Source of the DNA: a virus
Taxonomy: Duplodnaviria; Heunggongvirae; Uroviricota; Caudoviricetes
DNA: 14,289 nt
Reading direction: 5' to 3' (one strand)
IMG/VR virus record: IMGVR_UViG_2713896784_000007
Part shown: positions 1-3,000 of the stretch, one piece after another
Layout of the letters: every line of letters begins with the position of its first letter
How positions within the stretch are numbered: position 1 is the first letter of the stretch
Made by a program: the position numbers

Positions 1-3000
1 CAAACCTCAGCCAGCAGGGTGTGGAAGTAGGACATTTTCATGTCAGGCCACTTCTTTCCTGATCGGGGTTTTGCTATTACGTTGTGAATTTCTGAAGCTG
101 TGATGACGCCGAGCCGTAATTTGTGCCACGCATCATCTCCCTGTTCGACAGCTCTCACGTCGATCCCAGTACGCTGCAGGATAATGTCCGGTGTCATGCT
201 GCCACCTTCTGTTCAGTGGCTTTTTGTTTCAGGAATCCAAGAGCTTTTACTGCTTCGGCCTGTGTCAGTTCTGACGATGCACGAATGTCGCGGCGAAATA
301 TCTGGGAACAGAGCGGCAATAAGTCGTCATCCCATGTTTTATCNNNNNNNNNNNNNNNNNNNNNNNNNNNNNNNNNNNNNNNNNNNNNNNNNNGAACAGA
401 GCGGCAATAAGTCGTCATCCCATGTTTTATCCAGGGCGATCAGCAGAGTGTTAATTTCCTGCATGGTTTCATCGTTAACCGGAGTGATGTCGCGTTCCGG
501 CTGACGTTCTGCAGTGTATGCGGTATTTTCGACAATGCGCTCGGCTTCATCCTTGTCATAGATACCAGCAAATCCGAAGGCGAGACGGGCACACTGAATC
601 ATGGCTTTATGACGTAACATCCGTTTGGGATGCGACTGCCACGGCCCCGTGATTTCTCTGCCTTCGCGGGTTTTNNNNNNNNNNNNNNNNNNNNNNNNNN
701 NNNNNNNNNNNNNNNNNNNNNNNNNCGGATTAAGGCCGTACTGGTTGGCGACGATCAACAATGCGATGAACTGCGCATCGCTGGCATCACCTTTAAATGC
801 CGTCTGGCGAAGAGTGGTGATCAGTTCCTGTGGGTCGACAGAATCCATGCCGACACGTTCAGCCAGCTTCCCTGCCAGCGTTGCGAGTGCTGTACTCATC
901 CGCTTTATACCTCTGAATCAATATCAACCTGGTGGTGAGCAATGGTTTCAACCATGTACCGGATGTGTTCTGCCATGCGCTCCTGAAACTCAACATCGTC
1001 ATCAAACGCACGGGTAATGGCTTTTTTGCTGGCCCCGTGGCGTTGCAAATGATCGATGCAGAGTGATTCAAACAGGTGCTGGGGCAGACCTTTTCCCATG
1101 TCGTCTGCCAGTTCTGCCTCTTTCTCTTCACGGGCGATCTGCTGGTAGTGACGCGTCCAGCTCTGAGCCTCAAGACGATCCTGAATGTAATAAGCGTTCA
1201 TGGCTGAACTCCTGAAATAGCTGTGAAAATATCGCCCGCGAAATGCCGGGCTGATTAGGAAAACAGGAAAGGGGGTTAGTGAATGCTTTTGCTTGATCTC
1301 AGTTTCAGTATTAATATCCATTTTTTATAAGCGTCGACGGCCTCACGAAACATCTTTTCATCGCCAATAAAAGTGGCGATAGTGAATTTAGTCTGGATAG
1401 CCATAAGTGTTTGATCCATTTTTTGGGACTCCTGGCTGATTAAGTATGTCGATAAGGCGTTTCCATCCGTCACGTAATTTACGGGTGATTCGTTCAAGTA
1501 AAGATTCGGAAGGGCAGCCAGCAACAGGCCACCCTGCAATGGCATATTGCATGGTGTGCTCCTTATTTATACATAACGAAAAACGCCTCGAGTGAAGCGT
1601 TATTGGTATGCGGTAACGCCGCGCTCAGGCGGCTTTGATAGTCATATCATCTGAATCAAATATTCCTGATGTATCGATATCGGTAATTCTTATTCCTTCG
1701 CTACCATCCATTGGAGGCCATCCTTCCTGACCATTTCCATCATTCCAGTCGAACTCACACACAACACCATATGCATTTAAGTCGCTTGAAATTGCTATAA
1801 GCAGAGCATGTTGCGCCAGCATGATTAATACAGCATTTAATAAAGAGCCGTGTTTATTGAGTCGGTATTCAGAGTCTGACCAGAAATTATTAATCTGGTG
1901 AAGTTTTTCCTCTGTCATTACGTCATGGTCGATTTCAATTTCTATTGATGCTTTCCAGTCGTAATCAATGATGTATTTTTTGATGTTTGACATCTGTTCA
2001 TATCCTCACAGATAAAAAATCGCCCTCACATTGGAGGGCAAAGAAGATTTCCAATAATCAGAACAAGTCGGCTCCTGTTTAGTTACGAGCGACATTGCTC
2101 CGTGTATTCACTCGTTGGAATGAATACACAGTGCTGTGTTTATTCTGTTGTTTATGCCAAAAATAAAGGCCACCATCAGGCAGCCTTGTTGTAAATGTTG
2201 CAGGTATCAAGTAAGTAATTAGATGGAGCGCCATAAATTATGAATTCATCGTTTGTCGGGTCCATCTCCATCTCTTGTCCTATTGCCATTCTTGCGTCAG
2301 TGTCGTCAGCGGCGAAGCATAAAACAGCCCACGCACCCATTGTTTTAAAAAGAACTGCAATTGGCTGTGGTTTTACTGAATTTGCGTTAGCGCGAAAATC
2401 ACAAATCGCACTTTCATGAAATTCCATATATCACCTCAAATAAGTGGTTTGCTGCCTAATTTCATTTTCTGGCGACCAACACAAGTCATCTTGCTGTCAG
2501 TTGTTTGGATTTACGGTAGCCTGCCGCGTAAAGAGCTACATTTGGAAGACAAGTTGAGCCTTCATATTTTCTGGTCAACGTTGTCAGTGTTATTACTTCT
2601 GCTCTCATTGCTGGTTTGCGTTTGCATTGTAAGACCACTCGTGATGGGGTTGGCCTGTGTAGTTTGTCGGAGCTAATCGCCTCCTGACTTTGCAGGTTTG
2701 CGCGACGAGCTCTACGGCGAGAAGCTGCGGTGCCTTTAAATTCTGTTTTTCTGGACATAGATTCCTCCCGAATAAACTTTGGCGATGCAATCTCGAAGCT
2801 CCTCCTGAGACGGTTGCTTCGGCATTGCATCCCACAGCTTATGTGGTTGGGTGATCTGGCTTTTCAGCCACGTAGTCGAGAGTCGACGTTGTTTAAAGAG
2901 CCTGCCAGTCTGTTCCATTTGGCTTCCAGCGTCCTGCTGATGGTTAAATAGTACGATATGTACTTCACTTGGTCAATACAATTTGTTCTAAAACGGGGCG

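Follow-up and report, generated by a model that had tools for sequence, protein, structure and literature searches.

The window analyzed here, a stretch of 14,289 nucleotides from a virus of the Caudoviricetes (IMG/VR record IMGVR_UViG_2713896784_000007), is the early region of a lambdoid Shiga-toxin (Stx) phage. Its bases 1900-2900 are 100% identical to the corresponding DNA of VT2-Sakai (Sp5), and the same holds for an Stx1-converting phage and for many O157 Stx2a phages. Read on the minus strand, the pL operon runs in the order pL, nutL, N, H0090, ea10, cIII, kil, gam and bet. We focused on H0090, an 83-amino-acid (aa) open reading frame (ORF) at 2176-2427 (minus strand) that begins with an ATG at 2427..2425, ends in a TGA stop and is preceded, 4 nt before the ATG, by the Shine-Dalgarno (SD) sequence GAGGTG at 2437..2432. 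Upstream lies N, a P22/phi21-type antiterminator gene (2486..2758 (/2830), minus strand; Pfam N_peptide, E 2e-32), and downstream ea10 (1625..1993, minus strand; DUF2528, E 7e-47), the next module. The elements that drive N and H0090, nutL at 2862-2902 and pL at 2948-2976 (together 2862..2976, minus strand), come from the VT2-Sakai annotation, which was transferred, and from a promoter scan. An earlier note on this DNA had described an 83-aa ORF with a good ribosome-binding site (RBS) between N and ea10, and the coordinates, the two domain matches and the position of GAGGTG bear out that description. It had also called the gene unassigned, which does not hold in the sense of unnoticed: the gene is H0090 of VT2-Sakai, ORF21 of Sp5 and ECs_1180/ECs1180 of the Sakai genome, where its product (NP_309207.1) is listed as a hypothetical protein. 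Its annotation dates from 2000; two papers have noted the gene, which was reported as undeletable in 2016 and has been screened once without a reported effect.

With 111 ORFs of at least 40 aa in the window, length alone is little evidence for a gene. The profile of phrog_2471, an orphan phage family without assigned function, matches H0090 with an E value of 1.4e-61, residues 1-83 aligning to positions 1-83 of the 83-position profile. Homologues that are 70-84% identical are present in prophages of Citrobacter, Klebsiella and Enterobacter, and P22-like phages of Salmonella carry homologues with 75% identity. When H0090 was compared with its homologue at locus L007, nucleotide differences numbered 15, 12 and 43 at codon positions 1, 2 and 3, corresponding to 29 synonymous and 23 non-synonymous codon changes in 83 codons. 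Because these differences pile up at third positions, they indicate purifying selection on the predicted protein. Taken together, the full-length profile match, the 70-84% identical homologues and the third-position bias argue that H0090 is a real, selected gene. A 51-aa ORF at 2079-2234 (minus strand), listed as a second hypothetical protein in several phage records, is probably spurious; it overlaps the 3' end of H0090, the terminator and the conserved spacer described below.

The family is confined to prophages of the Enterobacteriaceae. Within E. coli, H0090 was found in about 7% of complete genomes (386/5,426), presence being scored when at least 80% of window positions 2100-2500 was covered. 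It is carried by 56 phage records, which include the non-Stx K-12 phages HK633, HK106, mEp234, Gally and JEP4, in which the protein is 100% identical, and it is present in both Stx1 and Stx2 phages of O157:H7. In an 86-aa variant (loci L033 and L039; phages 1717 and YYZ-2008), the loop that joins strand 2 to helix 2 is lengthened by a duplication of the three residues DTD.

To place H0090 among related phages, we compared the DNA downstream of N in 80 IMG/VR viral contigs selected for an N protein with at least 98% identity to that of the window. N forms the upstream edge of a variable slot, in which at least ten unrelated inserts were found across these contigs. H0090 occupies the slot in 11 of the 80 loci, the DTD variant included. 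Elsewhere it holds Ral (PF11058); SieB (PF14163), antisense and with or without Ral, the combination with Ral being the lambda arrangement; a Nmad5-family protein (PF18757); a 149-aa protein with two transmembrane (TM) segments (phrog_3054); proteins of 156 aa (phrog_1636), 130 aa (phrog_7374), 150 aa, 112 aa and 108 aa (phrog_4658); an 80-aa protein (DUF7446); or an insertion sequence (IS) element. At some loci two cassettes stand in tandem, and the same hairpin sequence recurs at the end of each. The pattern is repeated in complete E. coli genomes. None of the 80 loci has both H0090 and Ral, whereas Ral was found with SieB, with Nmad5 and with the 149-aa and 156-aa proteins. With conserved flanks and unrelated genes between the same joints, H0090 is thus a cassette of the lambdoid accessory region known as the N-ral hotspot.

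The joints of the cassette can be placed at nucleotide level. On the upstream side, homology to the window ends at 2486-2490 (the N stop), at 2435, or at 2425/2422, just inside the H0090 start codon; on the downstream side it restarts at 2192, 2171, 2145 or 2135. The 58-nt spacer between N and H0090 (2428..2485, minus strand) contains a leader, CCACTTATTTGAGGTGATAT, that includes the SD GAGGTG, and this leader, with its RBS and an ATGGAA start, is common to H0090, lambda orf28-ral and several other cassettes. In a pairwise alignment, the H0090 and Ral loci are identical through GAGGTGATATATGGAA (also given as CCACTTATTTGAGGTGATATATGGAA) and again from ACAACAAGGCTGCCTG into the terminator. Because the RBS and start, the last four codons (NKAA) and the terminator are common to both, H0090 is an exact allelic replacement of the lambda orf28-ral cassette, and the hairpin that overlaps its stop codon is the downstream recombination joint. 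The earlier note had put the gene in the ral/sieB position, and the phages with the same N, which carry Ral and/or SieB there, confirm this down to the joints.

The ea10 module (window 1611-2009) is itself variably present in related contigs, its deletion joints falling at the flanking terminator-like hairpins so that 2009 is joined to 1611. The genes ending at 1625, 2176, 5497, 9657 and 10181 all finish in KAA or RAA plus stop, with their stop codons in A(A/G)(A/G)GCNGCNTGA/TAA motifs that are either hairpin stems or ATGA stop/start overlaps at module joints; the C-terminal residues of these genes thus appear to be dictated by boundary sequences.

The expression signals around H0090 were examined with pattern scans. 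At its stop lies a terminator-like hairpin (2156..2187, minus strand), AAGGCUGCC-UGAU-GGUGGCCUU followed by UAUUUUU, whose 5' arm encodes the last three codons (KAA) and whose loop holds the stop codon. Pair-preserving variants of this hairpin close the homologues at L007, L008 and L011, so that it is conserved in four of the five contexts scanned; the version at L012 is weaker. The same hairpin is annotated as a rho-independent terminator in the mEp234 record. It is also the first terminator-like site after N, none being predicted in the 58-nt gap between N and H0090. The promoter scan gave no evident promoter upstream of H0090 besides the repressed pL. H0090 is oriented as N, driven from pL and starts 58 nt after N; the scans suggest that the two genes are co-transcribed in a promoter-proximal pL unit. 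The arrangement recurs in other phages. In mEp234 and at L008-L012, and apparently at L013-L014, the H0090 homologue is the first gene after N, 8-58 nt downstream (8-31 nt in the phages other than that of the window). The N genes upstream of these homologues are of at least four types (N_peptide, lambda N36, HK97-type and an unclassified arginine-rich protein), and the placement holds whatever the immunity region. At L007 no N was recognizable upstream of the homologue.

Downstream of the hairpin, a spacer of about 150 nt (2012..2165, minus strand) closes with a second terminator (2041..2020); nearly all of the alternative cassettes are followed by this spacer, with 96-99% conservation. The 196 nt from 2005 to 2200 fold with a minimum free energy of -66 kcal/mol (z -5.4 relative to shuffled controls), and the fold contains a 12-bp hairpin, GUGUAUUCAUUC/GAGUGAAUACAC. 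Rfam gave no match in 1950-3000 even at an E of 1, and the Pas small RNAs (sRNAs), considered as an RNA explanation, map to the late region. The spacer could be a terminator cluster or an unrecognized structured RNA.

The H0090 protein has a calculated mass of 9.2 kDa, an isoelectric point of 4.24, a net charge of -7.4 and no TM segment (TMHMM = 0; Supplementary File 3 of Silas et al.). Sequence searches were uninformative: there was no match in Pfam at E up to 1, none in NCBIfam, none among the PADLOC-DB defence families (0 at E up to 1) and nothing below E 0.09 in a profile search of PDB sequences. A word-indexed protein search returned 19 close matches. When 1.84 billion cluster representatives were searched exhaustively with an HMMER profile, seven matched: members of the small family of H0090 itself and two clearly spurious ones, the long repeat proteins P0021 and P0022. 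The earlier statement that the protein has no recognizable similarity therefore stands. AlphaFold2 gave a mean confidence (pLDDT) of 52 with a shallow alignment; when one extra divergent member was added, the best model reached a pLDDT of 76.6 and a template-modelling score (pTM) of 0.67, with the element order helix-strand-strand-helix-strand-helix. With moderate confidence, then, the product is predicted to be a small, acidic, soluble alpha/beta protein without enzymatic motifs. Its strand-strand-helix-strand core gave weak Foldseek matches (E 0.04-0.1) to small beta-beta-alpha-beta phage proteins, uncharacterized and about 50-70 residues long, one of them annotated DUF2188; all of these matches lie below significance, none is to a protein of known function, and the query model is itself only moderately confident. 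A HicB-like fold, prompted by the strand-strand-helix pattern, was dropped for want of support from hidden Markov models (HMMs). Literature searches under other names and topics (phrog_2471, mEp234, HK633, HK106, pL operon/anti-defense) found no functional study.

The gene has nevertheless been part of a large published screen. Silas et al. (bioRxiv 10.1101/2023.04.06.535777) synthesized 200 accessory genes, among which UDP0060 is AFM76313.1 of mEp234, a protein identical to that of H0090. The library numbers equal the orfN names of that work (1087 is Ral and orf87, 1063 is orf63), so that UDP0060 is orf60. The library was introduced into MG1655 and ECOR strains, which were challenged with lambda, P1 and T phages. 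The MG1655 and lambda arm, which reads out EcoKI, recorded ardA, ral and ocr as hits, and genes with phenotypes in the study were orf7, 24, 48, 63, 92, 98, 116, 126, 143, 145, 148 and 184. 'Ral' accessory regions were among the top-scoring hotspots, several regions being labelled 'RalSupEx'. A follow-up paper does not name orf60.

Comparison with characterized systems sharpens what H0090 is and is not. The closest parallel is lambda orf28-ral, which has the same slot, strand, leader with RBS and ATGGAA, NKAA end, stop-overlapping terminator and N allele; both Ral and the H0090 product are small and soluble. Outside the flanking signals, however, Ral (PF11058/phrog_1055) has no sequence similarity to H0090, and the tool that scores Ral itself at E 1.6e-48 against PF11058 finds no match for H0090. 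The Ral cassette consists of two overlapping ORFs, whereas that of H0090 is a single ORF, and Ral was an EcoKI hit in the pooled screen, unlike orf60. At the Ral loci (L027, 2830-2920, and others), the common RBS and ATGGAA open a 28-codon, extremely acidic ORF, MEEEFEEFEEHPQDVMEQYQDYPYDYDY, the end of which overlaps the ral start codon; this suggests that the 28-codon ORF and ral are translationally coupled. SieB also occupies an N-proximal variable region in lambda-type arrangements, but it is a membrane protein antisense to pL, whereas the H0090 product is predicted to be soluble, is encoded in the pL sense and has neither a PF14163 match nor a TMHMM segment. The accessory-region genes of Silas et al. 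(see also Nat Commun 2025, PMC12373910), to which the H0090 protein itself belongs, are likewise variable between conserved core genes; among them orf184 (a gop-beta-cII trigger from a Ral region), Ral, Ocr and ArdA had phenotypes, and none was reported for orf60.

The product of T7 gene 0.3, Ocr, is a small acidic anti-restriction protein that is the first expressed and is encoded at the very start of the early unit. H0090 resembles it in logic only, being acidic and encoded before the first terminator-like site. The two have no homology, the H0090 product is predicted to be mixed alpha/beta rather than a helical DNA mimic, and no EcoKI effect was reported from the screen. A DNA mimic of the Ocr or ArdA kind is not supported: the net charge is only -7.4, no HMM matched, and fold searches gave no match, although the moderately confident model makes the evidence from the fold weak. 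H0090 thus belongs to phrog_2471 and to the N-ral hotspot cassette class already described by others, and not to the Ral, SieB, Ocr/ArdA or PADLOC families.

H0090 is a self-contained accessory cassette composed of the common RBS and ATG, an 83-codon ORF, and common last codons merged with a terminator hairpin, and a tentative picture of its role can be drawn. When pL first fires after infection or induction, H0090 would be expressed along with N, without waiting for or depending on full antitermination, and its product would bind and neutralize a factor encoded by the host or by a resident prophage. The most plausible target would be a component of an anti-phage defence, H0090 then acting in counter-defence like its slot-mate Ral; given the published screen, EcoKI, a type I restriction system, is an unlikely target. 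We put the probability that H0090 acts by binding such a host or prophage factor, most plausibly in counter-defence and against a target other than EcoKI, at roughly 0.4. In its favour, the known slot-mates Ral and SieB are genes of phage-host or phage-phage conflict, and Silas et al. had independently placed 'Ral' regions high among the hotspots and picked this protein as an accessory gene. The earlier note had likewise proposed a candidate anti-restriction or host-takeover factor; its argument from position holds, and the function would still be a guess. The protein resembles neither Ral nor any other anti-restriction or anti-defence protein known.

Several observations weigh against this interpretation. 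The slot by itself does not fix function: SieB is not a counter-defence protein, and many slot genes are uncharacterized. An antisense sieB separates N from the H0090 homologue in Salmonella phage S9-5, and rho-dependent termination between N and H0090 could still occur. The AlphaFold2 prediction was confident in only one of five models, and fold searches with it returned no informative relative. The restriction-alleviation and toxicity assays that the earlier note had recommended were in effect run by the pooled screen, in which orf60 appears in no reported hit list, that is, neither as conditionally lethal nor as host-sensitizing or excluding; such an indirect negative outcome rules out only targets present in the hosts and phages used. 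Finally, an undeletable ORF21, as reported for Sp5 (see below), would not be predicted for a dispensable accessory gene.

Other functions have to be weighed against the same evidence. That H0090 alleviates type I restriction as Ral does would fit its exact replacement of orf28-ral and the fact that the two never occur together in the 80 loci. Yet PF11058 is absent at E up to 1, the cysteine cluster of Ral is missing, and MG1655 challenged with lambda returned ardA, ral and ocr from a library that contained orf60; we consider a Ral-like activity very improbable, the screen still leaving room for a type I system of a non-EcoKI family. A superinfection exclusion or defence gene that shields the infected or lysogenic cell, as SieB does, would be in keeping with the presence of SieB and of the two-TM 149-aa protein in this slot and with the 'RalSupEx' label. 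It is nonetheless an improbable function for a protein that has no TM segment and no PADLOC match and whose gene, unlike the antisense sieB, reads in the direction of pL and lacks its own promoter; moreover, the exclusion hits of Silas et al. were UDP79, UDP183, cor and imm, orf60 not being among them. H0090 might also modulate the early programme of the phage or a housekeeping target of the host, for example a protease (Lon/FtsH), an RNase or a transcription factor controlling N, CII or the lysis-lysogeny decision, or contribute to a Kil-like takeover. The products of cIII, kil and gam, its neighbours in the pL operon, all act on host proteins, and the consistently tight placement beside N, whatever the N family, would suit such a role. 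On the other hand, the unrelated Ral and Nmad5 genes use the same position, so that what places a gene beside N is the slot rather than any tie to N itself; phages that share this N get by without H0090; and no toxicity was reported for orf60, with the proviso that genes lethal in all hosts are absent from the figure of that paper. We regard a modulator of this kind as unlikely.

The remaining alternative is a function in lysogeny maintenance or of the addiction type, such as the neutralization of a toxic product of leaky pL or of another prophage product. It derives from the work of Mondal et al. (2016, PMC5155283), who used a K-12 lysogen of Sp5 to remove 43 gene sets by in-frame markerless deletion and failed to delete ORF21 (ECs1180) and ORF23 (ECs1184, window 3487-4008); they suggested that both are needed for stable lysogeny. 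In addition, H0090 precedes the first terminator-like site and so would be made whenever pL leaks. A general requirement of H0090 for lysogeny is unlikely, because most of the 80 same-N contigs, whose cI is mostly at least 90% identical, have neither H0090 nor ECs1184 and carry Ral, SieB, Nmad5 or another cassette instead, and because mEp234 and prophages of Citrobacter, Klebsiella and Enterobacter have H0090 but no ECs1184. Judged by their identifiers, many of these same-N contigs are apparently resident prophages of sequenced bacterial genomes, and no promoter other than the repressed pL is evident upstream of the gene. The map offers a plausible technical cause for the failure. ORF21 and ORF23 are exactly the two genes that flank pL-nutL-N; both exchange plasmids would therefore have had to bring an unrepressed pL-N into non-immune cloning hosts, the one for ORF21 with ea10-cIII-kil as well. 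Mondal et al. do not state which construction step failed (PMC5155283); from their deletion method and the map, the failure was probably technical. A maintenance or addiction-type role thus seems improbable to us. The narrower possibility that the 2016 report is literally true, H0090 expressed from leaky pL being required as a 'safety catch' for survival of the Sp5 lysogen, appears very improbable; if true, it would make H0090 a previously undescribed kind of prophage-maintenance gene in an otherwise anti-defence hotspot.

ECs1184 (3487-4008, minus strand) encodes a 173-aa protein of phrog_2602 without a recognized domain and occupies the rexAB position between cI and pL. Given a terminator-like site downstream of it at 3185..3164, it is probably transcribed from pRM, and most contigs that share the cI and N of the window lack it. 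A functional partnership of H0090 with ECs1184 was considered and rejected: the two co-occur in 9 of the 11 H0090 loci (the Sp5 lineage), but not in mEp234 or in other genera, which points to a lineage effect. Elsewhere in the window, the cIII thermoregulator was matched by Rfam at 1507-1565, and two masked runs of about 50 N each (344-393 and 675-725) lie inside bet and are translated as X. Two paralogous antirepressor-like genes (10635-11393 and 11649-12329) are closely preceded by Rfam matches to isrK, C4 antisense RNA and sRNA-Xcc1 at 10397-10582 and 11527-11610.

New here are a description of the cassette joints down to the nucleotide and a critique of the claim that the gene is undeletable. 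At the N-ral hotspot, cassettes are exchanged between a common leader and start codon on one side and a common terminator hairpin that encodes the last codons on the other, a rule that offers a simple way to harvest further candidate genes from the slot. As it stands, H0090 is an uncharacterized member of a recognized class and a reasonable but ordinary anti-defence candidate, carried by the easily handled K-12 phages mEp234, HK106 and HK633. If it does act in counter-defence, the few anti-defence factors that are expressed early would gain a new fold, and the immune system that it targets would bear on how Shiga-toxin phages spread.

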